Of a stretch of 64,000 nt of DNA, positions 13,084 to 37,097 are shown in pieces. The first letter of the stretch is position 1. Every line of letters begins with the position of its first letter. The notes under the pieces are model-generated. The model did not search any database. It was not told the origin of the DNA and was given only the letters and a program-made list of their open reading frames with translations. The stretch comes from Klebsiella phage EI, in the sequence record MN106245.1; one strand, written 5' to 3'. A program made the position numbers and the translations under genes.

Positions 13084-13601
13084 TAGTAACCACGGTCTTG
13101 TCGGGCAAAGTTTTCAGCATTTTTCAGATAGTACAGTTTGAAGATCTCTTCGGCCGTCATACCAAGACCCTGGAACATGTTCAGAACGAAATGTAGAATA
13201 TCGATCATTTCGAATTTAATTTCAAGTTGGTCTTCAGGAGACAGTTCGCTAATCAAAGTATTACGGCGTTCAGCATGTTGGGCTTTCCAAGGTTTCCAGA
13301 CTGCAGAGGCATCTTTCTCGCCGTTAGACATGCCACCTAATGAAGTCAGAAGTTCACGGAACTCGTCGTCAATGTAGTCTTTCTGATTGCGAAGCCAATC
13401 AACTACATCGCCAGCACGTGCTAATGCATCAGGATGAGCATTATGCTCAGGTTTATCAATAGCCAGACGGACCTGGAGAGATTTTTGCATATCAAGCATA
13501 ACCTGCAAAGCGTCTTGTTTATTAACCCACAAGTCATAGTAAGCTTCTTGGGCTTTATCAACGCCGTCAATCAGTTGAGAACATTCATTAAAATGTGCCA
13601 T
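13083..13601 (-). CDS. 56: dCTP pyrophosphatase (dCTPase/dUTPase, MazG-like), 172 aa
   Basis: Length and MazG-like all-alpha NTP-PPase features match T4 gp56; locus between soc and 61. Confidence 0.75.
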   Translation of the reverse strand: MAHFNECSQLIDGVDKAQEAYYDLWVNKQDALQVMLDMQKSLQVRLAIDKPEHNAHPDALARAGDVVDWLRNQKDYIDDEFRELLTSLGGMSNGEKDASAVWKPWKAQHAERRNTLISELSPEDQLEIKFEMIDILHFVLNMFQGLGMTAEEIFKLYYLKNAENFARQDRGY

Positions 13602-18660: not shown

Positions 18661-19002
18661 TTAGAAAAATAATCCTCGCTTTTTAGGCACCATCTCAAAT
18701 TGTCTTTTAAGACACTGCATGACATGAGGATATAAAATGTCTTTATCGGATGGTGTACTGAATTTAACAGCCACTTCACCGTTTGGCTTAATGTCCAGTT
18801 CATGGATATAAACGATGTGTTCTTCACCGTCTAATCTTATCACCATTTCTTGGATAACACTAGCCATTGCTTCTTTGATTATACTATGGGATTTGTCGAA
18901 GATTCTTTGAGAGCGTTCAAACTCCCCTTCTTCAAGGGGAGCTTCAGCTTCAATTTCTTCGGCCAGAGACTCTAGGTCCAGGTCTTCGAAGTTATTCTTC
19001 AT
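18661..19002 (-). CDS. 40: gp40-like head vertex assembly chaperone, ~113 aa
   Basis: Position between uvsX and 41 as in T4; start refined to ATG 19002. Confidence 0.45.
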   Translation of the reverse strand: MKNNFEDLDLESLAEEIEAEAPLEEGEFERSQRIFDKSHSIIKEAMASVIQEMVIRLDGEEHIVYIHELDIKPNGEVAVKFSTPSDKDILYPHVMQCLKRQFEMVPKKRGLFF

Positions 19003-20161
19003 CAGCGAAATTGTCCAGTTCGTCTTCAATATCAGCAGCACTAGGGGCCGATTTGGCTTTTACTGGAATTTTAGTTGATGGCTTAGAAGATAACAGGTCA
19101 GCAACCGCATCATCAACTTCTTTAATAGAAGAAATAGCACCGAGTTTATACTTGGTTTCGATTGCATCACGGAACGGCTTATGTTTAAACAAAGGACCCC
19201 AGAATTCTACATCATCTGTGGCTTTAGCACGCCATGACTTTTCTTCTTGAACCATTTCACCAGTTTCTTCGTCTAAGAAAGCACGAGAATACCAGCCTGC
19301 TTTAGGTTTAACAACGAAGCCGATTTCCGTGGCCAGTTCAAGCAGTCCGGAGAACGGATCGATACCGCCTTTGAAGTTAACAGTGATCGGGAACGTGGAT
19401 TTCTCTTGAACTGTACGAGATTTCTCAGCTTTAAGAGTAAAATCATACCCAGTTAGTTCAGTACCTTCTTTAACCTGACGTTTAGAAATAAAGAATACGG
19501 TACTTGCAGAATAAAGAATGCCGGTACCACCGCCCATAACTTCTTTAGGATACATACTGCCGATTTCCATGGCTGTATGGTTAATAGCCACACAAGGGAT
19601 ATCTTTAATCGTCAAATAAGGTGTAACGATACGGAACAGAGATTTAAGAGACTTAGCACGAGTCATGTCACCAACCTGTTTCTCGTCTAAAGCATCTTGC
19701 GTTTCTTTCTTAGAAGCTGTGTTACCAATAGAGTCGATGAACATAATTACTTTGTCACCACGTTCTATAGCTTCCAGCTGGTTGACCATATCGATTTTCA
19801 GTTGTTCAACTGACTGAATTGGAGTATGGACAACACGTTCTAAGTCAACACCCATTGAACGGAAATAACTTTCAGAAGCACCAAATTCACTGTCGTAGAA
19901 CAGACAAATTGCATCTGGGTATTTCTTCATATATGCAGCGACCATAGTCAGACCAAACAGAGTTTTAAAGTGTTTGGACGGTGCTGCAAAGATTGTTAAG
20001 CCACTTTGTAAACCTGTATTCAATCCACCACCTAATGCAATATTCAGCATAGGAATTCGCGTCATAACTTCATCACGACCATTGAACAGTTTTGATTTAG
20101 TCAGATCAGCAGTCAGTTTAGTGGTAGAAGCTTTAATCAGGCGAGATTTCAAATCGGACAT
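18992..20161 (-). CDS. uvsX: UvsX recombinase (RecA/Rad51 family), 389 aa
   Basis: RecA-fold motifs (FAAPSKHFKTLFG, IMFIDSIG); length matches T4 UvsX. Confidence 0.9.
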   Translation of the reverse strand: MSDLKSRLIKASTTKLTADLTKSKLFNGRDEVMTRIPMLNIALGGGLNTGLQSGLTIFAAPSKHFKTLFGLTMVAAYMKKYPDAICLFYDSEFGASESYFRSMGVDLERVVHTPIQSVEQLKIDMVNQLEAIERGDKVIMFIDSIGNTASKKETQDALDEKQVGDMTRAKSLKSLFRIVTPYLTIKDIPCVAINHTAMEIGSMYPKEVMGGGTGILYSASTVFFISKRQVKEGTELTGYDFTLKAEKSRTVQEKSTFPITVNFKGGIDPFSGLLELATEIGFVVKPKAGWYSRAFLDEETGEMVQEEKSWRAKATDDVEFWGPLFKHKPFRDAIETKYKLGAISSIKEVDDAVADLLSSKPSTKIPVKAKSAPSAADIEDELDNFADEE

Positions 20162-20244: not shown

Positions 20245-20514
20245 TTAAATCTTTAAACTTGTTTGCTTTGCCTGCTCTTCAGCGATAAGAGCATCCATCT
20301 TAGCGTCGTGTTCTCGCTTCATAGCCATTGCTTCTTCATGGTCACTAGAGTAGTGAACTTGGTTAGAGTTTGCATTACGGACATAGCCTATATTGTTGCC
20401 GCCGACGGTAAAGATTGTACCAACATCAGAAAGACGGTATGTATTTCCGTCTTCATGTTGAGCACACCCATTAAGAGTTAATGCGGCCAGTACGAGAATT
20501 AATTTAAGTTTCAT
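20245..20514 (-). CDS. putative lipoprotein, 89 aa
   Basis: MKLKLILVLAALTLNGC lipobox; ATG 20514 with GGAGAA SD (track start 20547 inside promoter). Confidence 0.45.
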   Translation of the reverse strand: MKLKLILVLAALTLNGCAQHEDGNTYRLSDVGTIFTVGGNNIGYVRNANSNQVHYSSDHEEAMAMKREHDAKMDALIAEEQAKQTSLKI

Positions 20515-20527
20515 AGTTCTTCTCCAA

Positions 20528-20580
20528 GTGTAGGAACACTTTAACACATTCCTACACTATTGTAAACCGCACGGTTTACA
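20528..20580 (-). promoter_or_regulatory. early promoter/stem-loop cassette P6 plus palindromic -35 (GTAAACCGcACGGTTTAC)
   Basis: IR GTGTAGGAACA/CATTCCTACAC; GTTTAC present on both strands. Confidence 0.5.
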
Positions 20581-20588
20581 AAATAAAT

Positions 20589-21488
20589 TTATTCATTAAT
20601 TACTACTTGCTTATAAGCAGGAATATTATATGGAGAATTTATTTTAGCCTTAAAATAGATGAACTCTGCTAGCCCAGGATGGAACACTTTTTCAGGGTCT
20701 TCAAAGTACTGGATAGTTGGCTGACCCATTAGTACTTGGTAGTATTCTTTCTTGGTTAGGCGCAGAACGTGGATCTTGGCTTCTTTAGGATACTGTTCAC
20801 GTTTGAAACTCATGTTCGGGTCTGTGATATACAAGACACGATCTGCTGCAATAGCGCATTCAACAACTTGGTCAAAACGATAACAAGGGTCACTGATACG
20901 GAATGGATGAAAAATACCATCAAGATGGATTGGTTCCAGGCCTTCTGTATAACGTTCCATGACACTTGGGTTGACGACTCGTTGATCTACAAAGATACGG
21001 TCTGGAATTGCACCAGCCGCTACGAGAACGTCTTTCTGACCGTGATTAAGAACAAATGTTGCTACAGACTTGTTCACAGATTCAACGTCAATGTCAATAA
21101 ACTCGTCAATATAATACCGAGGATTCTCAGGGTCTTTAGTTATATTAAAAACAAAGAATACCTCATGGTTGCCTTGATATCCAGTAATATCTGTCACTAG
21201 ATAAGAGCAGTCGTAGTAATCAACCAAAGAATCAACTATAAACTGATTTTCTTCCCAGAAATGTTTACGAGTTTCATAAGCATTTTCCTTGTACCAAAGA
21301 GGAACAAATTCAAACTCTGGGAATAGTTCTTTACATTCTTCGATATCACTTGCGTTACGTGGAACCGCGATGATATCACCAGCACTAGCACGATTCAAAT
21401 GTAACTGGAAGTTGCCGTCCTTAAGGACGGCGTATTCACCAGTTTCATAGCTTCGCATACTAAAGATTGGTACACGGAAATAAGCCAT
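20589..21488 (-). CDS. hypothetical protein, 299 aa, occupying the T4 beta-glucosyltransferase slot; candidate DNA-modifying transferase
   Basis: ATGA-coupled to gene 42 stop; no recognisable motif by eye; position between 42 and uvsX. Confidence 0.5.
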   Translation of the reverse strand: MAYFRVPIFSMRSYETGEYAVLKDGNFQLHLNRASAGDIIAVPRNASDIEECKELFPEFEFVPLWYKENAYETRKHFWEENQFIVDSLVDYYDCSYLVTDITGYQGNHEVFFVFNITKDPENPRYYIDEFIDIDVESVNKSVATFVLNHGQKDVLVAAGAIPDRIFVDQRVVNPSVMERYTEGLEPIHLDGIFHPFRISDPCYRFDQVVECAIAADRVLYITDPNMSFKREQYPKEAKIHVLRLTKKEYYQVLMGQPTIQYFEDPEKVFHPGLAEFIYFKAKINSPYNIPAYKQVVINE

Positions 21489-22201
21489 CAGATAAAACCT
21501 CTTACATAATCAAAATCACGTTCAAAGACGTGGGCTGAAACCATAGTGTGAGAATACGTACCTAATTGTACACCACATTTATCGGCAATGTATTGCATTA
21601 ACTTGCCTTGCAGATAAAAGTCTAGCTGCATCACTACGGCACAGTTCTGTGAACGCATATGTGTATGGGCATAAAGCTTGCCTTCACGGATATAGTACGT
21701 TATAGAATCTGTACACGGGTATTCAAGTGATTCATCTGAATCTAGAAGTGCTTGGTCTTGCTCTTGGAGAATTTGGAACACAACACGTCGCGAGTTAGGC
21801 TTTTCTTTAAGCTCTTTAAGCAATGCAGGGAGTTGGGCAGCAATTCGAGGTCCATAGAAAGTGTTGAAGTTTGCAGGCAGTACGTCACTTTTCGGCTTAT
21901 CAATGAACTTAGCAACATTCGGGTATTCCTTAAATGCTTCAGCGGCATCAGTACCACCAGAAATCATGAATTGCCAGAATGCTTCAGCATAATCATAATC
22001 AATACGGTTGATACGAGAATCGGTGAATTTGAACGTTGTCGGATCGGTTACTTCGATTGAAGCAGAACCGATTTCATTACAACGGCCAATACGAGAATCA
22101 ATAACGAACTGCGGATTGTTGAGAATCTCTTCGTTCAGTACTTTGAATGCGGTTTGGAAAGACGGGTATGTAATATGTTTCATTCTGTTGTGCTCTGACA
22201 T
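21488..22201 (-). CDS. 42: thymidylate-synthase-fold deoxypyrimidylate hydroxymethylase (gp42-like dCMP hydroxymethylase), 237 aa
   Basis: TS-family core (PNSRRVVFQI, HTHMRSQNCAVVMQ vs T4 gp42 PDSRRGIMIY, AVVNMRSNDVV); locus next to 43. Confidence 0.65.
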   Translation of the reverse strand: MSEHNRMKHITYPSFQTAFKVLNEEILNNPQFVIDSRIGRCNEIGSASIEVTDPTTFKFTDSRINRIDYDYAEAFWQFMISGGTDAAEAFKEYPNVAKFIDKPKSDVLPANFNTFYGPRIAAQLPALLKELKEKPNSRRVVFQILQEQDQALLDSDESLEYPCTDSITYYIREGKLYAHTHMRSQNCAVVMQLDFYLQGKLMQYIADKCGVQLGTYSHTMVSAHVFERDFDYVRGFI

Positions 22202-22217
22202 TAAAAAATCCTATTAT

Positions 22218-22245
22218 ATACTAAAAGAGGCCGAAGCCTCTTTGC
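22218..22245 (-). terminator. rho-independent terminator (AAGAGGC-ttcg-GCCTCTT + TTTAG)
   Basis: Between U32-like gene stop and gene 42; followed on minus strand by TATATAAT. Confidence 0.6.
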
Positions 22246-23406
22246 TTATTCCGGGTACCGGAGTTCGTCGTCTGAACTAGTAACATCTACGATCTGGATA
22301 GAATCCAGAGGCCGGTCATTTTTAGATAACTGGCGCTTGTAGTAACGTTCGCAGTAAGTACAAGTACTACCGCAGACTTCATTAGCACAGTCAAATGTAG
22401 GATGTTTGAACCAACGTTTTTCAAGGAAGCCATCTAACAAAGAAGTCTCGATATTCACAGTATGGCTATAGTTAGCGTCAGATTCACCGTTGTAGATAGT
22501 TTCGAGAGGTTTCCACAACTCAAGAAGGTTACCTTCAAATTGCTCTGAAGAATACGCTTCAAGAACCTTCATGATGTATTCGGTTGAGCCTGTTCGACCA
22601 GAGACTTTGAACTGCGTGATGCCAATATCACGATACAGTTTTAGGTCTTGTGGACGCACAAAACGTGTGCGTAGCCAGTTGAAAGGGTCGGTGTCTCGAG
22701 CTTTAATGCAGTGCTGCATTGGATAACCGTCGAGCGATTTTGCATCTTCTGCAGTAATGTCGGTACTGTGGAAAATATAGCAAGAATCACGATAACTACA
22801 ATGAGTCGTGTAACCCTTGCCTGCGTTTGAGCAGAACTCATTAACGAGGACTTCAAAGATAATACCATTTTCATTACAAAATGCTGCGGCTTGTTTCAAG
22901 AAGTTAACTGATCTGTTCTTATGAATCCCACAGCACACTTTCTTAATGTTGTACTGATCATGAAGATATTTTATTTGAGTAACAGCATCAACATGCAGGA
23001 TAGTTGATACCTCAATTTCAATTTCTTTATTTACTTCACGAACAATTTCCATTACAACCGGGTTAGCTATAGTGATACGCCAAACACCAATAGAAGATAA
23101 GTACTGTACGTAATCTTGAATGGCTTGTTTTTTCCATTCTGTCAGTTCGCGTTTGGTCCCTGGGTTTATACTGTTTAAAGTATAATTAAAGCAAATACCG
23201 AGTTCGTTACAACGTCGAACGTAAGTTTCCAGCTGGCCATCTTTAACATCAGGCAAACGGAAGTCCGGTCGAGCAGCGACAAAGGCCATCGCTCGTGTAC
23301 TACCATAAACTTCATTAATCAGTGACTGTGGATTCTTAGCATTCAGCTCAACGATTTTATCCAGAAGAGCCAAGTCAAAATTAGTTCCGACCTTAAATAC
23401 GTTCAT
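22246..23406 (-). CDS. peptidase-U32-family protein (RlhA/TrhP/UbiU-like putative Fe-S, O2-independent hydroxylase-type enzyme), 386 aa
   Basis: U32 core pattern (ICFNYTLNSINPGT..; VWRITIANPVVMEIVREV..EVSTILHV) and Cys-rich E-x-F..C..C..C segment (NEFCSNAGKGYTTHCSYRDSC) plus C-terminal CANEVCGSTCTYC. Confidence 0.45.
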   Translation of the reverse strand: MNVFKVGTNFDLALLDKIVELNAKNPQSLINEVYGSTRAMAFVAARPDFRLPDVKDGQLETYVRRCNELGICFNYTLNSINPGTKRELTEWKKQAIQDYVQYLSSIGVWRITIANPVVMEIVREVNKEIEIEVSTILHVDAVTQIKYLHDQYNIKKVCCGIHKNRSVNFLKQAAAFCNENGIIFEVLVNEFCSNAGKGYTTHCSYRDSCYIFHSTDITAEDAKSLDGYPMQHCIKARDTDPFNWLRTRFVRPQDLKLYRDIGITQFKVSGRTGSTEYIMKVLEAYSSEQFEGNLLELWKPLETIYNGESDANYSHTVNIETSLLDGFLEKRWFKHPTFDCANEVCGSTCTYCERYYKRQLSKNDRPLDSIQIVDVTSSDDELRYPE

Positions 23407-23942
23407 TTAATACCTGTTTTATTTTCAATATATGCGAAAAGGCGTTTAGCTTCGTCTTCATTATATCTCAAAACCCGATTAAAGCCATCATGCTCTAAAA
23501 GCTTAAACACGTTTTCAAAGTTGCGCTCGTACTCGGTAATAGTCAGATTAAACTCATCTTTAGTCAGTTTAATCAAATCATCTTCGAAGTCTTCGTCAAG
23601 TTTGTTGCGTGACAAAATGACTTCAACTATGTCAAATTCTTGTTTGAATCGAATCCAATCTCTAAGGTGTTCATATGGGTCTATTTCACCACGAAGGAAT
23701 CCAGAATAAACTATATTACTAGGGTACCCTCGGTCAAGAATATAGACAAAATTAGGATCTAAGAACTTGTATAAGGTTTCGACCAAGGCTTTATCGTTAT
23801 CTGTACCTAATGAAATACACTTGCCATTAATTGATTTAGGAAAATCAATTAGTTTTACCTTAGGATTCCTAATAAGAGCCTTAATAAAAGATGACTTCCC
23901 TGAATTATCAGGGCCGTCTACAACAATAATTTTAGGACTCAT
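23403..23942 (-). CDS. P-loop (d)NMP/nucleoside-kinase-like protein, 179 aa
   Basis: IVVDGPDNSGKSS Walker A; LDRGYPSNIVYS (DRY/ERS-like lid motif of Tmk/dNK families). Confidence 0.5.
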   Translation of the reverse strand: MSPKIIVVDGPDNSGKSSFIKALIRNPKVKLIDFPKSINGKCISLGTDNDKALVETLYKFLDPNFVYILDRGYPSNIVYSGFLRGEIDPYEHLRDWIRFKQEFDIVEVILSRNKLDEDFEDDLIKLTKDEFNLTITEYERNFENVFKLLEHDGFNRVLRYNEDEAKRLFAYIENKTGIK

Positions 23943-24298
23943 GGATGATATGCCTTGTATGTTTCAAATGTGCCATCTTGAATCATTTTCTTAAAGTGAT
24001 CAGGTCGAATTGCTCGGTCGTCAATAATAAAATCATAACTTGGTTTATGTGTAAGCAGATTATGATACTTCAGACCAATTTTTTCAAGGTTCTTGACAAG
24101 AGCAGGGACAACTTCAGTCAGAATTCGACCTGGGCCGCAAGAGGTCATACCGCGAGCAGTGTACAAGGTTATCTCGTGGCCTTCATCATAGAGCTTGTTA
24201 ATTATGGCCACCATTTCATGGTCTGGTGCAAAGTTCAGATAATCACGATTGCTATTCCATACCGTGATTGTGTTGTCGATGTCGAAGCAGAGATTCAT
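23939..24298 (-). CDS. small HAD-superfamily phosphatase, 119 aa
   Basis: Motif I FDIDNT (DxDxT), TLYTARG (motif II Thr), K..IDD motif IV. Confidence 0.6.
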   Translation of the reverse strand: MNLCFDIDNTITVWNSNRDYLNFAPDHEMVAIINKLYDEGHEITLYTARGMTSCGPGRILTEVVPALVKNLEKIGLKYHNLLTHKPSYDFIIDDRAIRPDHFKKMIQDGTFETYKAYHP

Positions 24299-24345
24299 TA
24301 ATAGGCCTTATAGTTAAAGACGATTCACAGGTCAATACTTTATAA
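24299..24345 (-). promoter_or_regulatory. sigma70-like promoter TTGACC-N17-TATAAG upstream of HAD gene
   Basis: minus strand TTGACCtgtgaatcgtctttaacTATAAGgcctattaATG. Confidence 0.4.
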
Positions 24346-24354
24346 AGAAATGTA

Positions 24355-24392
24355 TCTTTAAAAGATTTAGGAGGAGGCATTTTAGCCTCCTT
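24355..24392 (-). terminator. hairpin AAGGAGGC-taaaat-GCCTCCTCC + T-rich tail downstream of NTase-kinase gene
   Basis: 6-8 bp GC stem; could alternatively be SD+ATG of a 42-aa ORF (MPPPKSF...). Confidence 0.4.
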
Positions 24393-24415
24393 AACAGTGT
24401 CATTACGAACTAGAA

Positions 24416-26080
24416 TCATCCGATTCGTTCCCACTGGTGGGCGATGTTACCGCCAATTGGTTTATATTTTACACCAGTTTCTTTATCAAGCAATTCCCAT
24501 TTATCAGGGCATCTGGTAATAATAGAAGCTGTGATTGGGTCTTTAACTTCAGTCACTTCGGTGCCATCGATAAGTTTACGTTTGCGAGGCCGCCTTTTAA
24601 GCAGCACACTCAGCTGATACAGACCATGATAATAAGCGCCAATAGCCTTAAGAGGGTTGTTCTTGAAATACCCTGCTAAAGCCATCCAAATAACGGCAAT
24701 CCACAGTTTATGCTTAAAGGTACACATAGGGATATCATCTAACGGCATTACTTTCTCAATGTCGACAAACATTCTAGGGCCATTCCGAGAAATACCACCC
24801 CATAGTGGATCTGCGTTAAATTTATCGTACCCATCAATAGAATAAAGCACTTTAGCTTCATCATAAATGGTAGGGCCGTACTGACTACTACCAAAATAAC
24901 CACGCGGGTCTATAATTTTAATATCACCCGAATCGGTAAACATAATGTTAGAATAATGCGGGTCGCCGTGGATCAACTGGTACGGTTCTTTATGCTCGGA
25001 TAGAATTTCTAATGCGTGTTCCAGCAGTTTTTCTGGTTTACCTACTTTAAAATCGTTAACATGGGTAATGCCTTGAGGTGCAAAACCTTCTAAAAGTTCT
25101 TTAATAGAATCGTTGCGGATTAATACCTTATCAAGAACTTCTTTCTTAACATCTGCATACCATTGCTCGTCGGTAGGAATATAGATATCGCCACCTAATG
25201 ATTTCAGAGCACTGATTACTTTATATACCATTAATACTTGGGTATCTTTGGTCATCAGAGGATATGCATCTGCCATGGTTTTACCGTAGATTCGTTCCAT
25301 CTTAATAAATTCACCTGGCGTGAAATCTACAATAGTAGGAATAAATTTCGATTGTACAGAATTATACCATTTAAGCTCTTTAGCTTGAATTTCTTTACCA
25401 TATTCATTAGTCGGGATTTTAATAGCATGTTGTTCTGTGAATTTGAGCTTGTTAAAGTCACGATTAATCTCTGAGGTTTTATGCGCTTCGGCTAATTTAA
25501 GCTTATCACCAATGTCAACAACTGACTCTAGCTTACGCTCGGTCATATAAACCATCGAATCTAAATTGTCGGCAAGGTCTTCGCCATAGTTACCTTCAAA
25601 AGAATAGAACCCGGGCCATTGAGCCACTTGATACATGCCAACCACGCCACCACCGGTCCCGATTTCACGGAAATACGGTTCTTCAAAAGTGAAACGACAA
25701 TCTGTACCAAAGGTATAGCAATAATCATTACCCCATTCTACTTCATGGCCTTCCGGAATAATGTCGCACCAATTGAACAGTACATTATGGCCTACAATAT
25801 CATCAGCAATACAATCAATAGCGTGCGCAGAACCTATAGATACATCAACATGACGAATGGTAATATCACTTATTCCAACAGACTTCATGTACCCACGAAC
25901 TAGCCCGTCAAATTTACTGTGAATTACTAGAATAATTTCATCTGATTGATTTTTATACAAATCAACCAAGTGTTTAAAAACTGTGTGCTGTTTGTAGTTT
26001 ACAAGCACTTTAGGGATTTCGTTTGTAATCGGGTATAAACGCGACCCAAGACCGGCACCCAAGATAACTACTTTACGCAT
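24416..26080 (-). CDS. bifunctional sugar-1-phosphate nucleotidyltransferase (N-term, GlmU/RmlA-like) / APH-fold sugar anomeric kinase (C-term), 554 aa
   Basis: N-term ILGAGLGSRLYPIT..PKVLV signature; C-term HGDPHYSNIMF..IKIIDPRG Brenner/APH catalytic + DxG motifs (NahK/AmgK-like). Confidence 0.6.
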   Translation of the reverse strand: MRKVVILGAGLGSRLYPITNEIPKVLVNYKQHTVFKHLVDLYKNQSDEIILVIHSKFDGLVRGYMKSVGISDITIRHVDVSIGSAHAIDCIADDIVGHNVLFNWCDIIPEGHEVEWGNDYCYTFGTDCRFTFEEPYFREIGTGGGVVGMYQVAQWPGFYSFEGNYGEDLADNLDSMVYMTERKLESVVDIGDKLKLAEAHKTSEINRDFNKLKFTEQHAIKIPTNEYGKEIQAKELKWYNSVQSKFIPTIVDFTPGEFIKMERIYGKTMADAYPLMTKDTQVLMVYKVISALKSLGGDIYIPTDEQWYADVKKEVLDKVLIRNDSIKELLEGFAPQGITHVNDFKVGKPEKLLEHALEILSEHKEPYQLIHGDPHYSNIMFTDSGDIKIIDPRGYFGSSQYGPTIYDEAKVLYSIDGYDKFNADPLWGGISRNGPRMFVDIEKVMPLDDIPMCTFKHKLWIAVIWMALAGYFKNNPLKAIGAYYHGLYQLSVLLKRRPRKRKLIDGTEVTEVKDPITASIITRCPDKWELLDKETGVKYKPIGGNIAHQWERIG

Positions 26081-26130
26081 TTCGTGTTCCTCATTTGTTG
26101 ACGAGCTATTGTACTACATAATAATTAAAG

Positions 26131-26160
26131 CGAAGCCCTAGAGTGATTCCAGGGCTTCAC
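26131..26160 (-). terminator. hairpin GAAGCCCT(11-nt loop)AGGGCTTC downstream of gene 43
   Basis: 8-bp stem; weak U-tract. Confidence 0.35.
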
Positions 26161-26173
26161 GGCCTAATCTATA

Positions 26174-28879
26174 CTACCATCCTAAGATATCATCTAAGGT
26201 TGCAACGTGCTCATAGTTGATTCTAGCCGCTGATGTAAAGCCAGACAGCGGTTTAACAAACGTTTTTTGGAACAGCGTTGAGTAGTCAAGGTACTTTAAC
26301 ACATCTTCACGAATGCTAGGATCGATCTGAGTACCTGATGGCCATGCTATGCATTTGTCACCAAACGGGTTCTGGTCCCGTAACGGTAGTACCATTACTT
26401 TAGACCCTTCAACAATCGCTTCTGCATCTGGGATGTTTTTAGTAGCACGGTTATAAGCCAAGATTCCACGAATATGGAACGGGCATTTGTACCCAGGATA
26501 ACCGTTATCATCGTACTGAGCAATATTGTTCGCAGAACTAACACCAGCAATAGTCATATAATGCTGTTTACGGAATTCTTGTTCAAACTCTTTATAGTAG
26601 TCCTGTAATGAGCTTTCACCTTCTTGAAGCATACGGCGAATACATTCTTTCAATGCTTTCTGGCATGCTTTAGGAGTACTTGACTTTTGAGTTTCAAGGC
26701 CCATAATTTTCATTTTAGGGTCCGCGTAGCGAGTCCCTTCCATGTCATACACGTTCAAAGCGTATCGCTTCTTACCAGTCCAGAAACCACCAAGACCTTT
26801 AGAACCTAATGGAGGACAAGCAATAGCTTCTCGGTCCATAAACATCAGCTGTTCTTTGTTGTTCATGTAGTCGCACATATCCTGGAATGCACGGCCGATA
26901 GCTGGCTCTAATTTTTCTTTAGCAAACTTATCTAAGAAGTCTACTAAATGGTTCGTATCACGGAACTTGTCTTCACCGATCTTCTCGATTAATGGGTCTA
27001 CACACATATAGATTGAGTCTGTGTCACCATAGATAACATACTTATGGTTATCAGTCTTCAGTGTTTCATTGTAGAACTCGTTCACGCGGCGTTCAATCCA
27101 TTGCAAGGCTAATTGTCCGAACAAAGTGATTGCAGTTGCGTTACGAAGGTCGTAATAACGGAAGTGTACGTTACCAAGAGCACCATAAAGTGAGTTGATA
27201 AGTAGCTTACGACAGATCTGAGCTGTCATACCAGCGATTTCAGTACGAGTTGCTTTATCAAGCATACTCATCAAGATAGCTTCGTTAAAATCGTGAAGCT
27301 GCGCCTTAATACTTTCTTCCATATCGAAACGATAATCAAGAGTCGGTTCTGGCTTATCAGAGCTCTTTGGATTATGCAATGCTTCTTTAATCAGTTCTGC
27401 ATTACGTTGAGCCGCCAACATAAATCCTTTATGAAGTTTACGCTGGTCGAATACTTTCTTAATTTCAACAGGTACAACGCCATCAATATCTTTACGATAC
27501 ATCCAGCCATTAGGAGAACAAGAGTATTCTTCACTCGGTTTTGGAGCAGTACCAGCAATGTATTCATGAAGTGGGCGGACAGCAAACTGGCTATGCAAAG
27601 TTTCCGGGCTTATGTTAACTTGTCGAATAATACTCGGATACAGAGACGTCAGGTCAGCAGATACAACGTACTTATAACTATTAGGAGTAGGCTCTTTAAC
27701 AAATGCACCTGGGTAACTTTGTGGAATGTGGTGCTTTTTCTGAGGAATGACTTTATTGTCGTTCTTCAACGAGTTAAAGATGATTGCGTCCCATGTCTTA
27801 ATAGGGCTGAATACCGACTGCATCTGCATTTTAGCGTAATAAGCCATATCTAACGACAGGTTCAAGAACTGGCGTTTTTTATCGATTTGTTGTACTCGAG
27901 CAACGTCAATAATGTTATACGAAATATACCGTTGGTGGTTAGTTTCACGAAGTTTGTTGATAGGGCCGTCATATTCTAATTTACCCACGCCAAGTTCATA
28001 CTCAGCTACATAGTCAAGACGATACGAAGGCTGGTTCGTAAAACTAAATTTCTTGTATAAGTCTAAGTAATCAAGAACACTGATACCCATCGGTGTGATA
28101 ATTTCACGTTCATCACCAAAGTTATCTGCAATAATTTTGCTATTGACTTTACGAAGAGGGCTTAAACGCCTAGCGGTCTTTTCACCAAACACGTTCTTCA
28201 GTCGATTATAAACGTACGGGTTATCGAAACCTTCTACGTTCCAACCAGTTAGAATAACAGGGGTCTGTTGTTCCCACAGATTCAAGTATTCGAGAAGAAG
28301 TTCTTGTTCGTTATCAAACGGCAGATAAACAACTCGGTCAAGAATATCCTGAGGGATTTCATCACCACCTTCAGCTTCTGATTTACCGGCTAATACCGGG
28401 TCCCACTTAGTTACTTTGCCGTAAGGAGAATTCAAAAGGTCAAACACATAGAACTTATCAGCAATACTATCATAATGAGTTAATGCATCGATAGGATACT
28501 TGGCTTCATTAGGCTTCGGAAATTCTGGAGCTGTTACTTCGATGTCATAGTTACACTGGCGAACTAATGTCGGGTCAAAATGAATTTCACCTGGGTACCT
28601 ATCAGACAAATAAGCCAGCTTAAAGTCATCCATACCCATTGCATCTTGCCCGATGTCTTCCATTCTACGAATCCAGTTACGGGCTTCCTTCATATCTAAG
28701 AAATGTTTTTTCTTACAATTCATTCCGTAGATATCTTTGTACTTTGATTCAGTATCAGAATGATAGAACAGGGTTGGTTTATAATCAATCTGACGGGTCT
28801 GTTCAACCCCGTTTGAATCAATATATCGTTCGTGAAGTGTATTGCCAAGCTGTTCGATAGTTAAAAAGAATTCTTTCAT
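26174..28879 (-). CDS. 43: DNA polymerase gp43 (family B, with 3'-5' exonuclease), 901 aa
   Basis: Exo I FDIE, pol motifs DxxSLYPS, YGDTDS; length ~T4 gp43. Confidence 0.9.
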   Translation of the reverse strand: MKEFFLTIEQLGNTLHERYIDSNGVEQTRQIDYKPTLFYHSDTESKYKDIYGMNCKKKHFLDMKEARNWIRRMEDIGQDAMGMDDFKLAYLSDRYPGEIHFDPTLVRQCNYDIEVTAPEFPKPNEAKYPIDALTHYDSIADKFYVFDLLNSPYGKVTKWDPVLAGKSEAEGGDEIPQDILDRVVYLPFDNEQELLLEYLNLWEQQTPVILTGWNVEGFDNPYVYNRLKNVFGEKTARRLSPLRKVNSKIIADNFGDEREIITPMGISVLDYLDLYKKFSFTNQPSYRLDYVAEYELGVGKLEYDGPINKLRETNHQRYISYNIIDVARVQQIDKKRQFLNLSLDMAYYAKMQMQSVFSPIKTWDAIIFNSLKNDNKVIPQKKHHIPQSYPGAFVKEPTPNSYKYVVSADLTSLYPSIIRQVNISPETLHSQFAVRPLHEYIAGTAPKPSEEYSCSPNGWMYRKDIDGVVPVEIKKVFDQRKLHKGFMLAAQRNAELIKEALHNPKSSDKPEPTLDYRFDMEESIKAQLHDFNEAILMSMLDKATRTEIAGMTAQICRKLLINSLYGALGNVHFRYYDLRNATAITLFGQLALQWIERRVNEFYNETLKTDNHKYVIYGDTDSIYMCVDPLIEKIGEDKFRDTNHLVDFLDKFAKEKLEPAIGRAFQDMCDYMNNKEQLMFMDREAIACPPLGSKGLGGFWTGKKRYALNVYDMEGTRYADPKMKIMGLETQKSSTPKACQKALKECIRRMLQEGESSLQDYYKEFEQEFRKQHYMTIAGVSSANNIAQYDDNGYPGYKCPFHIRGILAYNRATKNIPDAEAIVEGSKVMVLPLRDQNPFGDKCIAWPSGTQIDPSIREDVLKYLDYSTLFQKTFVKPLSGFTSAARINYEHVATLDDILGW

Positions 28880-33905: not shown

Positions 33906-34924
33906 GCACTGGCCTCGATATACAGTTGAGTAGCTAATGCTTTAAGAGCATCGATGTCATCTTGAGATGTCGCGTCAGGAAGAGCTTCAATATATTCCAT
34001 CATCATATCAAGCAGACCCACTACTTCTTCTTCGTCGGCTTCTTCAGTGTCAACAGAGTTATCTACTTTAGAAACTGTGCGAAGTTCATGAACTACTTTT
34101 TCAAGCTCACTTTCGAAGGCTGGTAGTTTATCGTCTACCTTGGTAATAACTACACGAACTGCTAGATTTTTAAATTCATTTGCATTAAATGGCCCTGTTA
34201 CAGGGTAGAAGATTTTCCTGTGCCATGTTGTTTCGTTAGGGATGAAATCAAATGTTTGTAGCCGAGTGTCTTGAACCCAGAATCCTCGCGGGTCGTTCTC
34301 GTCACCCGCTGTAAGCGTCCAAGGCGTTCCGATGTACTTAACGTTTGCTGCGCTTGATATTGTGTGGAAGTGCCCAGACCATACTTGTTTGTACTTTTTG
34401 AGGAAATCTGGTTCGAGCCCATGAGATTTCATACCTTTATAAAAATAGAAGCCATTTAGCTCCCAGTGACCAATACAGTATTCAGCGCTAGACTGCTTGA
34501 TATGGTCCATGATTTGAGTTGTGTTTTCATCGCACATCCATGGAATCAAATCAATCAGGGTTCCATCGAAGTCTAAAGTCGTAGGCTTTTCAATAACCGT
34601 AACGTTATCGTATTTTCCCATTACTTCTTGAGCCGCGTTAGGAGTTAGAGTATTTTTATAGTGGCAGTCATGGTTCCCAACAATTGTAATAAGCTTAATA
34701 TTAGCATCATCAAGCTCTTTAATAATTTGTCGAGCAAACTCCATACACTTGTGAGTAATTGCTTTACGGACGTCAAAGATATCGCCGTATTGGATGATTG
34801 TGTCAATACCATTATCTTTAGCGTATTGAATATGGTCTCTGATGCCTTTCAATTGTATTTCTTGGACCCATGGGTCGTCAGCTTTAACACCTAAGTGCCA
34901 ATCGCCGCTATGAATTATTTTCAT
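33902..34924 (-). CDS. 47: recombination nuclease subunit gp47 (Mre11/SbcD-like phosphoesterase), 340 aa
   Basis: MKIIHSGDWHLG, GDIFD, GNHD phosphoesterase motifs; start refined to ATG 34924. Confidence 0.85.
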   Translation of the reverse strand: MKIIHSGDWHLGVKADDPWVQEIQLKGIRDHIQYAKDNGIDTIIQYGDIFDVRKAITHKCMEFARQIIKELDDANIKLITIVGNHDCHYKNTLTPNAAQEVMGKYDNVTVIEKPTTLDFDGTLIDLIPWMCDENTTQIMDHIKQSSAEYCIGHWELNGFYFYKGMKSHGLEPDFLKKYKQVWSGHFHTISSAANVKYIGTPWTLTAGDENDPRGFWVQDTRLQTFDFIPNETTWHRKIFYPVTGPFNANEFKNLAVRVVITKVDDKLPAFESELEKVVHELRTVSKVDNSVDTEEADEEEVVGLLDMMMEYIEALPDATSQDDIDALKALATQLYIEASA

Positions 34925-35525
34925 TTCGAATTCGTTCCCACATTTTAGTAGCTGCTGCAGAAGCAGAGCCTGGAAGTTTACCTTTAACCCACCCATCAGG
35001 AACATTATCAGGATGAATCATCTTATGTTCTATTCCGTTATTATACCACTTCTTACCCTTATTGTGGCAAGATGCTTTATACTTCGGAGAACGGCCTTCT
35101 ATAAATCCTTCTGGGATAAATGGTGCAAACGACTGTTCTAAAGTTTCAGGATGATAAGAATGGATATTACCAGAACCGTTATGGCTTCCATATAGAGGGT
35201 GCTTTTCTTTAGAAACATCTCTCCCAAAACAACCGTTAGGTACAGCAAAAGACATATTCATGAAAAGAGGAGAACGAACTACGTCATGAAGTTTTTGATA
35301 GTGCAACTCATTTGCAATAGCTTCTTGCCTGGTTTCAAATTGCTCTAAAAGAATTGTATCGAATAATTCAGGATGCTCTTCTTTCTCTTTATCATAAATT
35401 TCTTTGTATGCTTTAGAAATAACAGTACCGGTATAGCCTTCCATATGTTTCTTTAAGGAAGAAGAGCCAATGTAGAAAGGAGGGAGTTTATCTCCAGAAT
35501 AAATTGTTAGATAAGTTATATACAT
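34908..35525 (-). CDS. GIY-YIG homing-endonuclease-like protein (Seg-like), 205 aa
   Basis: N-terminal YITYLTIYSGDKLPPFYIGSS GIY-YIG motif; inserted where T4 carries alpha-gt. Confidence 0.55.
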   Translation of the reverse strand: MYITYLTIYSGDKLPPFYIGSSSLKKHMEGYTGTVISKAYKEIYDKEKEEHPELFDTILLEQFETRQEAIANELHYQKLHDVVRSPLFMNMSFAVPNGCFGRDVSKEKHPLYGSHNGSGNIHSYHPETLEQSFAPFIPEGFIEGRSPKYKASCHNKGKKWYNNGIEHKMIHPDNVPDGWVKGKLPGSASAAATKMWERIRNENNS

Positions 35526-35530
35526 AGTTA

Positions 35531-35556
35531 CCCTAAAAGGGCCGAAGCCCTTTAAA
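35531..35556 (-). terminator. terminator hairpin AAAGGGC-ttcg-GCCCTTT
   Basis: Overlaps stop of 62-aa ORF. Confidence 0.45.
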
Positions 35557-35740
35557 TTTTACGATACGTGATAGTACCTTCAGCTTTAGCTTTATCGTAA
35601 GCGAAATTGAACCGGTTAATCATTTCATTCTTATCGCTACGAATCTTTGCATAATCAATTGCTTTTTCCAAAGCTTCAGGAGAATACATAGCCCCGTTAC
35701 GAGATAATGTATTCGCTTTAGCTATTACAGCTTCCATCAA
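35552..35740 (-). CDS. hypothetical protein, 62 aa
   Basis: ORF track. Confidence 0.35.
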   Translation of the reverse strand: MMEAVIAKANTLSRNGAMYSPEALEKAIDYAKIRSDKNEMINRFNFAYDKAKAEGTITYRKI

Positions 35741-35822
35741 CCTTCACCGAAGCCGACCTTGGTTTCTACAACGCCAAGATCGTCTACATCATGGATAAAG
35801 TATTCAGAAGAATCAGGTTCTC

Positions 35823-36020
35823 TTACCATTTATACCACCTTTTAATTTGTGCAGTGTCAGCCCATACAAGCTCTTTCGGATCAGCTTTAATAATCACCCC
35901 TGTTGAGCCTAGAATGCGATAGTGCGTTTCTGATATTTTAACAGCCATAGTACCATTAGCTATAGACAGAGTGAATCCTGCGTTAACCTGCAAACGTTTA
36001 AATTTTACCTGCTTGATCAT
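35823..36020 (-). CDS. hypothetical protein, 65 aa
   Basis: ORF track. Confidence 0.35.
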   Translation of the reverse strand: MIKQVKFKRLQVNAGFTLSIANGTMAVKISETHYRILGSTGVIIKADPKELVWADTAQIKRWYKW

Positions 36021-36366
36021 TGATAATGTCCCAAATGATTTTGCGAGAGGTCTGCCAACCGGTCAGAATAATCTCATCAGTGTATGGTTGGCGTAAGATG
36101 TCACGAGATTTCTCGATAGCATACTTATACGCCGGGAAGTTATTGTCAAGAACAGCTACTTGAGCGTGTTTATACAAACGGTCAAGTTCATGACGGTTCT
36201 TACGGTAAATTTTATTAGCTTTTGCCTGCGCCTGACTTTCAGCAATAGCTTGCTGAGCCAGAATCGCTTCTTCAATTTCGTCCTTCTTGACACCACGTTT
36301 TTCTAGTGCTTCAGTGATGCTATCAATTTCAATCTCAGTCATTTTATACCTTAGGAATGTAATCAA
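35998..36366 (-). CDS. hypothetical protein, 122 aa
   Basis: ORF track. Confidence 0.4.
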   Translation of the reverse strand: MITFLRYKMTEIEIDSITEALEKRGVKKDEIEEAILAQQAIAESQAQAKANKIYRKNRHELDRLYKHAQVAVLDNNFPAYKYAIEKSRDILRQPYTDEIILTGWQTSRKIIWDIINDQAGKI

Positions 36367-36601
36367 TTACTACGCTAAATCCGTCATCAGAAACATTATA
36401 CTGATGGTTAATTAAAGCAGTTTCGGATGTGATATCCGTATCGTGTGGGTTCTTAGGGTCAATGTGAATATCAAGGTCAAGTATTTCCCTTAGATACATT
36501 TTAAGCAAATAAGGGATAGCATCTTGGTCTTGCACTTCTTCTAAAAATCCTTCGAGGTTAATCTTGAGCCTCATATAAAAATTCCAATTCATTACCTTCA
36601 A
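36344..36601 (-). CDS. hypothetical acidic protein, 85 aa
   Basis: ORF track. Confidence 0.4.
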
Positions 36602-37097
36602 CTACCGGTTCACTCTTTTTATCAGACCCAGGTGCCTTGTATGCTGAGGTTTCGTATTGCGTCATTTTATCGTAGATGTCCTGAATAAAGGTTTCATCTG
36701 CTAACGCAACCATATCATCGTCACGACTATCATAAACGTTGTGAACGAAGTAGCTATATTTCTTTGCCATTTCTTTGCGTTCTTTTTTGATACGCTGGAC
36801 GAAGGCATTAAAACAAGCCATTGTAATATATGCATGAGGGTTGGTGTATTTGGTTTCGTCGAAGTTATGAAGACCTTTAATTGCGGCTTCAATACCGTCT
36901 GCAATCATTTCTTGCTTCCAAGACTGGGTATATCCTGAGAAGTTGAATCGTTTGCTCAGACCTTCGGCTATTAACATGATGGCAAGGCCAATCGTGTCAT
37001 TTTGTCGCGCTTTAGTCCCTTCGGGAGCATTTCTAACCTGTTCCTTCCAAGCACAAATAGCTTTGTACAACTCCTTATTATTTACGTAATCACTCAT
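36558..37097 (-). CDS. 55: late sigma factor gp55, 179 aa
   Basis: [51 protein letters not shown].. near-identical to recalled T4 gp55; start refined to ATG 37097. Confidence 0.85.

Follow-up and report, generated by a model that had tools for sequence, protein, structure and literature searches.

A predicted arabinosyl-5-hydroxycytosine cassette of the Marfavirus type in Klebsiella phage EI and a possible function for its U32-family protein

The DNA analysed here, hereafter called the window, is a 64-kb stretch (64,000 nucleotides) of Klebsiella phage EI (sequence record MN106245.1). Its interval 20245-26173 holds a block of six genes between gene 43 and uvsX, which is very probably the Marfavirus version of the cassette known from phages RB69, HY126 and DLP3. 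Judging from orthology, the encoded enzymes are predicted to turn every cytosine of the phage DNA into an arabinosylated 5-hydroxycytosine. The cassette, the 5-hydroxycytosine chemistry and the occurrence in Marfaviruses are already published (2025-2026). The locus differs from that of RB69 in the lack of an isomerase gene, the presence of a single transferase gene, the relocation of a kinase gene and the recent deletion of a chorismate mutase gene.

An earlier note on this DNA had described a cytosine hypermodification module that provides its own activated, non-glucose sugar and takes the place of the T4 glucosylation genes, and this part of its reading is retained. The note had also regarded the module as possibly undescribed. 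The comparison with RB69 identified it as essentially the characterised RB69-type arabinosylation cassette.

Gene content and relationship to the RB69 cassette

The block consists of six open reading frames (ORFs), arranged head-to-tail on the minus strand and flanked by gene 43 (26174-28879) and uvsX (18992-20161), as the earlier note had found. From the gene 43 side, the ORFs encode proteins of 554, 119, 179, 386, 237 and 299 aa. Start/stop overlaps reported in the note were also seen when the sequence was read directly, with ATGA at 23403-23406 and 23939-23942 and TGATG at 21488. The flagged interval matches Klebsiella phage vB_KpnM_Potts1 (Marfavirus F48) along its full length with 98.6% identity; for about 16 further Klebsiella phages, also of the species Marfavirus F48, the value is 97%, and for phage Marfa it is 90%.

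All six proteins are full-length orthologues of RB69 proteins (gp45-gp53) with identities of 40-86%, and their genes occupy the same slot between uvsX and 43; the layout of the HY126 cassette is that of RB69. Together with other genera, Marfaviruses are named as carriers of the syntenic cluster (PMC13326640), and both observations speak against a new module. In the DNA of RB69 and of Acinetobacter phage DLP3, 5-hydroxycytosine bears one to three arabinoses, and an ether bond joins the sugar to C5 (PMC13326640). In a Mosigvirus, 5-ara-dC was found independently, and the earlier assignment as 5-hydroxymethylcytosine (hmC) was described as 'erroneously identified' (PMC13390438).

The 237-aa protein (21488-22201) has a thymidylate synthase (TS) fold (Pfam Thymidylat_synt, 51.2 bits, above the curated cut-off) and is the orthologue of RB69 gp48. 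The label 'gp42-like', used for it in the earlier note, does not fit the identity values, which are 78.9% to both RB69 gp48 and the HY126 protein, but only 25% to T4 gp42. The same pattern was observed against the PDB, with an E-value of 2.5e-130 for 9iqc/9ir2/9iqu versus 2.5e-5 for T4 gp42 (1b49); the former entries were deposited in one series with 9iqz, 'phage HY126 glycosyltransferase'. The aligned motif reads QRSCDVFLGLPFN in E. coli ThyA, MRSNDVVFGFRND in T4 gp42 and MRSQNCAVVMQLD in both RB69 gp48 and the window protein. With positions numbered as in E. coli ThyA, the catalytic Cys146 is kept and the exchanges are L143E, D169N and N177D, so that position 169 is Asn in the window protein compared to Asp in gp42 and ThyA. 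The exchange of Asp169 for Asn is diagnostic for 5-hydroxy-dCMP synthase activity, and TS homologues of the RB69/HY126 type make 5-hydroxy-dCMP with a flavin and with O2, the latter shown by 18O2 labelling (PMC13326640). Based on these residues and identities, the 237-aa protein is predicted to be a 5-hydroxy-dCMP synthase and not a dCMP hydroxymethylase. The base proposed in the earlier note, hmC, is thereby replaced by 5-hydroxycytosine, the base of the RB69-type system.

The largest protein of the cassette (554 aa, 24416-26080) combines an N-terminal sugar-1-phosphate nucleotidyltransferase with a C-terminal APH-type sugar kinase (Pfam NTP_transferase, 31.1 bits, and APH, 25.6 bits, both above the cut-off); we refer to it as NT/kinase. 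It is 43-44% identical over its full length to RB69 gp53 plus gp52 (RB69p053+p052) and belongs to a subtype found in Marfaviruses and Proteus phages, with 72% identity between these two groups. Its search against PDB sequences yielded generic nucleotidyltransferases and nothing more informative. In HY126, AfhE, the orthologue of the NT/kinase, is an arabinose-5-phosphate 1-kinase and UDP-arabinose pyrophosphorylase, and AfhF converts arabinose-1,5-bisphosphate to arabinose-1-phosphate (PMC13326640); the Afh gene names do not appear in the HY126 GenBank record. The AfhF orthologue of the window is the 119-aa HAD-family sugar-phosphate phosphatase (23939-24298; PHROG 1238), which is 66% identical to RB69 gp51 (RB69p051). 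It matches the capsule-biosynthesis HAD phosphatases of NCBIfam TIGR01689 with an E-value of 1.9e-13, which is below the family cut-off.

The 179-aa protein (23403-23942) is a thymidylate-kinase-like P-loop nucleotide kinase (PHROG 761 'thymidylate kinase', E-value 1.4e-34) and is 40% identical to its orthologue RB69 gp45 (RB69p045). In the window its gene is flanked by those of the HAD and U32 proteins, compared to a position next to uvsX in the RB69 layout. The 299-aa protein (20589-21488), which the earlier note had left as an unknown, is a GT-B fold DNA glycosyltransferase and the sole such enzyme in the Marfavirus lineage. It is orthologous to RB69 gp46:47 ('arabinosyltransferase 1'), with 66-72% identity to gp47 plus gp46, and its gene adjoins the hydroxylase gene, syntenic with that of the RB69 arabinosyltransferase. 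Pfam gave zero matches to this protein and a PDB sequence search gave nothing informative. Outside the flagged interval, a gp56-type dCTPase is encoded on the minus strand (13086-13601) with 86.7% identity to RB69 gp56, which is included in the pathway list of the published system (PMC13326640, Table 1). This dCTPase is the predicted pool-clearing partner of the cassette, which would supply dCMP and keep unmodified cytosine out of the DNA.

From these assignments, a pathway of seven steps can be proposed. The gp56 dCTPase would convert dCTP to dCMP, as suggested by its 87% identity to the RB69 enzyme, and the 237-aa enzyme, with 79% identity to its RB69 orthologue and the D169N exchange, would hydroxylate dCMP at C5 with flavin and O2. 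Kinases would then yield 5-hydroxy-dCTP for incorporation into DNA by the phage polymerase. For the sugar, by analogy with AfhE and AfhF of HY126, the C-terminal kinase of the 554-aa protein would phosphorylate arabinose-5-phosphate at C1, the 119-aa HAD enzyme would remove the 5-phosphate, and the N-terminal nucleotidyltransferase of the 554-aa protein would form UDP-arabinofuranose. In the last step, already proposed in the literature, the 299-aa GT-B enzyme would move the arabinose onto the 5-hydroxyl group. Since a single transferase is present, the expected product is mono-arabinosyl-5-hydroxycytosine.

The same product is predicted by analogy with Shewanella phage Thanatos, whose DNA contains mono-arabinosylated cytosine. 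Thanatos shares with the window phage the single syntenic glycosyltransferase, the U32 protein (79% identity) and the TS homologue, but differs in host and genus and in keeping a chorismate-mutase-like gene beside the U32 gene. The Acinetobacter phages of the DLP3/Lazarusvirus type, with tri-arabinosyl-5-hydroxycytosine, have in common with the window phage the hydroxylase, the HAD phosphatase, the NT/kinase, the thymidylate-kinase-like protein and the first glycosyltransferase. In contrast, they carry three glycosyltransferases and an isomerase, lack both the U32 and the chorismate mutase genes, and have the HAD gene abutting the TS gene.

Compared to the T4 system (gp42, alpha-gt and beta-gt), the chemistry appears to be different, with folate-dependent hydroxymethylation in T4 and a predicted flavin/O2-dependent hydroxylation in the window phage. 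T4 uses UDP-glucose of the host, whereas the window phage is predicted to make its own UDP-arabinose. The absence of the T4 genes imm, beta-gt and alpha-gt, stated in the earlier note, was reproduced: across the 64-kb window, tblastn gave zero matches to imm, imm.1, beta-gt and segA, and zero to alpha-gt, although the neighbours of the latter, 47 (33908-34924) and 55 (36561-37091), are present; uvsX and 43 were matched as well. The slot between these neighbours (34925-36560), which in T4 holds alpha-gt and mobB, is without an alpha-gt homologue.

Two cassette layouts and alternative readings

RB69 and HY126 (Mosigvirus) share with the window phage the same six proteins in the slot between uvsX and 43, including the D169N hydroxylase and the U32 protein, together with the gp56 dCTPase. 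The window differs from them in lacking the isomerase (gp55), the gp3 transferase and the small genes gp49 and gp54, in the relocation of the P-loop kinase gene to a position between the HAD and U32 genes, and in an NT/kinase of another subtype (43% identity). As regards arabinose-5-phosphate isomerase (SIS domain, RB69 gp55), tblastn gave zero matches in the 64-kb window, which bears out the earlier note on this point, and none was found within 10 kb on either side in Marfavirus loci. In the set of isomerase-bearing phage records (n = 276), the names that occur at least three times do not include Klebsiella. The second arabinosyltransferase of RB69 (gp3, RB69p003) has no match in the window, though the rIIA-39 slot is present, and this transferase type has no match in any Klebsiella phage record.

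Two layouts could be distinguished among the loci compared. The RB69-type layout features an isomerase, an NT/kinase with 61-79% identity to that of RB69 and the kinase gene next to uvsX. The second layout, that of Marfavirus and Proteus phage Pm5461, has no isomerase, an NT/kinase with 43% identity to that of RB69 and the kinase gene between HAD and U32. All of the isomerase-less loci (L013, L014, L017 and L026) carry the 43%-type NT/kinase, and every RB69-type NT/kinase is accompanied by an isomerase. Klebsiella produces arabinose-5-phosphate for the synthesis of 3-deoxy-D-manno-octulosonate (Kdo) via KdsD/GutQ. A phage isomerase is dispensable in such a host, and the isomerase is an accessory feature of the RB69-type cassette. 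Because the phage has none, its arabinose-5-phosphate must come from KdsD/GutQ of the host.

The chorismate mutase gene was lost from the gap between the U32 and TS genes. Alignment with phage PWKp16 revealed a deletion of 176 bp that removed it; the 81-aa chorismate mutase of PWKp16 (Pfam CM_2, 39.5 bits versus a cut-off of 27) is kept in sibling phages of the F48 type. The deletion scar is a 44-bp spacer on the minus strand (22202-22245; compare L002:3435-3680), which holds a hairpin with a UUCG loop followed by TATATAAT. The terminator placed at 22218-22245 by the earlier note corresponds to this hairpin, which is real (about 22222-22245, 8-bp stem, -11.5 kcal/mol) and modestly better than those of shuffled sequences (z = -2.3). 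The same deletion is present in Potts1, and phage Marfa is likewise without the chorismate mutase gene.

A second family of small genes was observed in the U32-TS gap of other phages. RB69 gp49 (RB69p049, L001:7158-7397), with the motif YYxDAFxHSxxGxIxAE..RHINVAKRY, represents this family, which occurs in RB69-like, Yersinia and Pectobacterium phages (gaps of L020, L021, L022 and L027) and is absent from the window. Its interpretation as a diverged chorismate mutase was rejected, as it gave no Pfam match and belongs to a family of its own, present in some phages together with the chorismate mutase gene.

Several points weigh against the assignment of the block to arabinosyl-5-hydroxycytosine synthesis. 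No chemical analysis of Marfavirus virion DNA was found in the literature searched, and for none of the published systems has the first transfer of arabinose been reconstituted in vitro. The NT/kinase, at 43% identity to that of RB69, is of a distinct subtype, which always co-occurs with the loss of the isomerase and with a diverged and relocated P-loop kinase. In addition, two of the six genes, those of the U32 protein and the P-loop kinase, are without a demonstrated role in the pathway.

The divergence of the NT/kinase leads to the first alternative, in which the base is 5-hydroxycytosine, but the sugar is not arabinose or the pathway starts from a different substrate. The strict association of the 43%-type NT/kinase with isomerase-less loci, and of the RB69 type with isomerase-bearing ones, would fit such a change, and glycodiversity on 5-hydroxycytosine is known, with galactose and glucose in RL38J1. 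However, genera that have retained the isomerase show at least as much divergence from RB69 in the glycosyltransferase and the HAD phosphatase as seen here (66-72% and 66% identity, respectively), and the supply of arabinose-5-phosphate by Klebsiella makes the phage enzyme dispensable. We consider another sugar or entry substrate unlikely.

Far less probable is a new hypermodification built on hmC, in which the TS-fold enzyme would be a hydroxymethylase of the gp42 type and the hydroxymethyl group would be linked to a novel NDP-sugar. In its TS fold and in the N177D exchange, which specifies dCMP, the 237-aa protein agrees with gp42, and RB69 was first reported to contain arabinosyl-hmC (PMC6024577). 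That assignment of 2018 has been corrected to 5-hydroxycytosine (PMC13326640; PMC13390438), and the window protein is closer to a proven 5-hydroxy-dCMP synthase (79%) than to gp42 (25%), with Asn in place of the Asp169 of gp42 and ThyA. Hardly credible is a role of the sugar genes on host lipopolysaccharide or capsule, with the TS homologue as the only protein concerned with DNA: the HAD protein resembles capsule-biosynthesis phosphatases and the GT-B relatives include lipopolysaccharide enzymes, but the sugar genes are translationally coupled with nucleotide enzymes in the DNA-modification slot of T4, have orthologues in phages whose DNA bears the sugar, and are not accompanied by export or lipid-carrier genes.

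The U32 protein and its candidate function

The 386-aa protein (22246-23406) is a member of the U32 family (Pfam Peptidase_U32, 45.3 bits versus a cut-off of 22.4) with the U32 TIM-barrel fold. With identities of 79-100% across 221 phage records, ranging from Klebsiella to Shewanella, it is better conserved than any other protein of the cassette. The earlier note had taken its presence as a departure from RB69; the protein has an orthologue there, gp50, with 86% identity. RB69 gp50 is listed solely as a 'sugar or heterocycle reductase' (PMC13326640), and a PDB sequence search with the window protein gave nothing informative.

The characterised U32 subfamilies, RlhA, TrhP and UbiU/V, perform O2-independent hydroxylations that need prephenate, and two of them act at C5 of a pyrimidine (PMC5727448, PMC6599085, PMC10990095). 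The targets of the family are C5 of pyrimidines or aromatic rings, and prephenate serves as the oxygen donor. We tentatively propose that the phage protein may be an O2-independent, prephenate-dependent cytosine C5 hydroxylase, with dCMP or possibly DNA as its substrate, as an anaerobic twin of the TS-fold hydroxylase; we consider this possible, at slightly less than even chance. Parallel pairs of O2-independent and O2-dependent enzymes are known, with TrhP and TrhO for tRNA and UbiU/V and UbiI/H/F for ubiquinone. An O2-independent route would be needed in anoxic habitats, because the phages destroy dCTP and the known hydroxylase requires O2.

The phage protein resembles RlhA (ho5C2501 of 23S rRNA), TrhP (ho5U34 of tRNA) and UbiU/UbiV in the U32 domain, the TIM-barrel fold, the many conserved cysteines and, for the phage family, a genomic link to prephenate supply. 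It differs from the E. coli U32 paralogues in its low identity to them (17-22%), its cysteine spacing, an additional C-terminal CX4CX3CX2C cluster and the lack of C-terminal RNA-associated extensions. Ten cysteines, including those of the C-terminal cluster, are invariant in 36 U32 homologues. Of these, C203 and C209 align with the RlhA motif, but the overall spacing departs from the canonical 4Fe-4S-type pattern, and this mismatch with the canonical U32 motif is a caveat for the proposed hydroxylase function.

The link to prephenate is the chorismate mutase gene. Among T4-like IMG/VR loci, 13 of 15 have it directly next to the U32 gene, as do 51 phage records spread over many genera. Located beside U32 in sister phages, it would supply prephenate as the oxygen donor; the window phage, from which it was deleted, would depend on PheA/TyrA of the host. 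In Acinetobacter phages, the unit of U32 and chorismate mutase is absent as a whole, so that HAD abuts TS.

About 284 U32 homologues were found, many of them with 39-58% identity in contigs of uncultured phages. For 39 such divergent loci, same-strand neighbours were counted within 10 kb on either side on each contig. A distant homologue of the 299-aa glycosyltransferase was present in 27 of the 39, an NT/kinase fusion in 19, a KdsC-like phosphatase in 18 and a protein of the arabinose-5-phosphate isomerase family in 12. Less frequent were a DAHP synthase/chorismate mutase fusion (8/39), a Tmk-like kinase (7/39) and a gp56-like pyrophosphatase (5/39). In many uncultured phages, the operon takes the form glycosyltransferase - arabinose-5-phosphate isomerase - NT/kinase - (DAHP synthase-chorismate mutase) - KdsC-like phosphatase - U32.

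Two contigs (L008 and L009, 7000-17107; ENA ERZ920188 scaffold_349 and ERZ27280567 k141_715825) feature a full shikimate pathway around a U32 gene whose product is 50% identical to that of the window. The genes code for a DAHP synthase-chorismate mutase fusion, DHQ synthase, shikimate kinase, a DHQase-EPSP synthase, chorismate synthase and shikimate dehydrogenase. In other uncultured contigs, U32 is located beside dCMP deaminase and DnaE. Five IMG/VR loci (L034, L035, L038, L043 and L054) have, from about 5 kb upstream of U32, the order gp56-like pyrophosphatase (dUTPase_2) - Tmk-like kinase - glycosyltransferase-like - U32 - DnaE. This order resembles a minimal kit for base replacement, in which U32 takes the place expected for a TS-fold modifier.

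According to a TS-family hidden Markov model, a TS gene lies beside U32 in 15 of 15 T4-like loci and, within the same 10 kb on either side, in one of the 39 divergent loci. That single locus, L031, was rejected as a counter-example, since its TS is a canonical ThyA (Asp169, Asn177) and not a hydroxylase. Because no D169N TS homologue is found nearby, U32 would be the only hydroxylase of the divergent operons. The nearest named homologues of the DAHP synthase-chorismate mutase fusions in these contigs are from Bacteroidota, and the uncultured phages probably belong to Bacteroidota hosts. The Bacteroidota matches include aerobes, and an anaerobic habitat of the contigs was not established through this host inference.

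The distribution of U32 among hydroxylase-bearing phages also bears on its proposed function. U32 was found in 0 of 57 Acinetobacter and 22 Rhizobium hydroxylase-bearing phage records, based on tallies restricted to names with three or more records. In addition, about 40 Escherichia phages, e.g. KT176190 (QL01), HM071924 (IME08) and MK295203, possess a TS homologue 86-87% identical to that of the window and are not among the 221 U32 records. These phages indicate that U32 is dispensable in some enterobacterial phages, and they are a caveat for the hypothesis. A strict rule, by which U32 would occur in all phages of facultatively anaerobic hosts and in no others, fails on the same phages, and the clades compared are not independent. 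In the literature searched, in which coverage of recent work is incomplete, no published link between U32 proteins, prephenate and phage DNA was found.

Surroundings of the cassette and implications

Between the glycosyltransferase gene and uvsX, where T4 has segA and beta-gt, the window carries a small ORF for a predicted lipoprotein (MKLKLILVLAALTLNGC..., 20245-20514, minus strand), which corresponds to gp100 of Potts1 and to PHROG 1754 (function unknown). It was observed only in the Marfavirus loci L013, L014 and L017 and is absent from the other genera examined. The ORF is probably outside the pathway and could encode a protein of the superinfection-exclusion type.

The internal sigma70-like promoter proposed in the earlier note has a basis in the sequence, as the site TTGACC-17-TATAAG exists at 24317-24345. 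Such sites are no more frequent in the region than expected by chance (17 found versus 19.1 ± 4.4 in shuffled sequences), and a defined internal promoter was dropped. The site lies in the 117-bp spacer 24299-24415, which is annotated as a 55-aa ORF (gp94) in Potts1. Two strong hairpins were observed on the minus strand, one just past the stop codon of gene 43 (26130-26160, -24.6 kcal/mol, z = -5.8) and one just past that of the NT/kinase gene (24372-24391, -13.5 kcal/mol, z = -4.2).

Taken together, the DNA of therapeutic Klebsiella phages of the F48/Potts1 type is predicted to carry mono-arabinosyl-5-hydroxycytosine. Such a modification bears on the sensitivity of these phages to restriction, CRISPR and type IV systems (GmrSD/BrxU), as well as on sequencing and cloning of their DNA. 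For U32, as the most conserved gene of the cassette, the analysis offers a function that can be tested. If the protein is indeed a hydroxylase, it would provide an O2-free route for phages replicating in the anoxic gut. A U32 hydroxylase would then be known for the first time from a virus, and for the first time from DNA-precursor metabolism, and the presence of chorismate mutase genes and even of entire shikimate pathways in phages would be explained.

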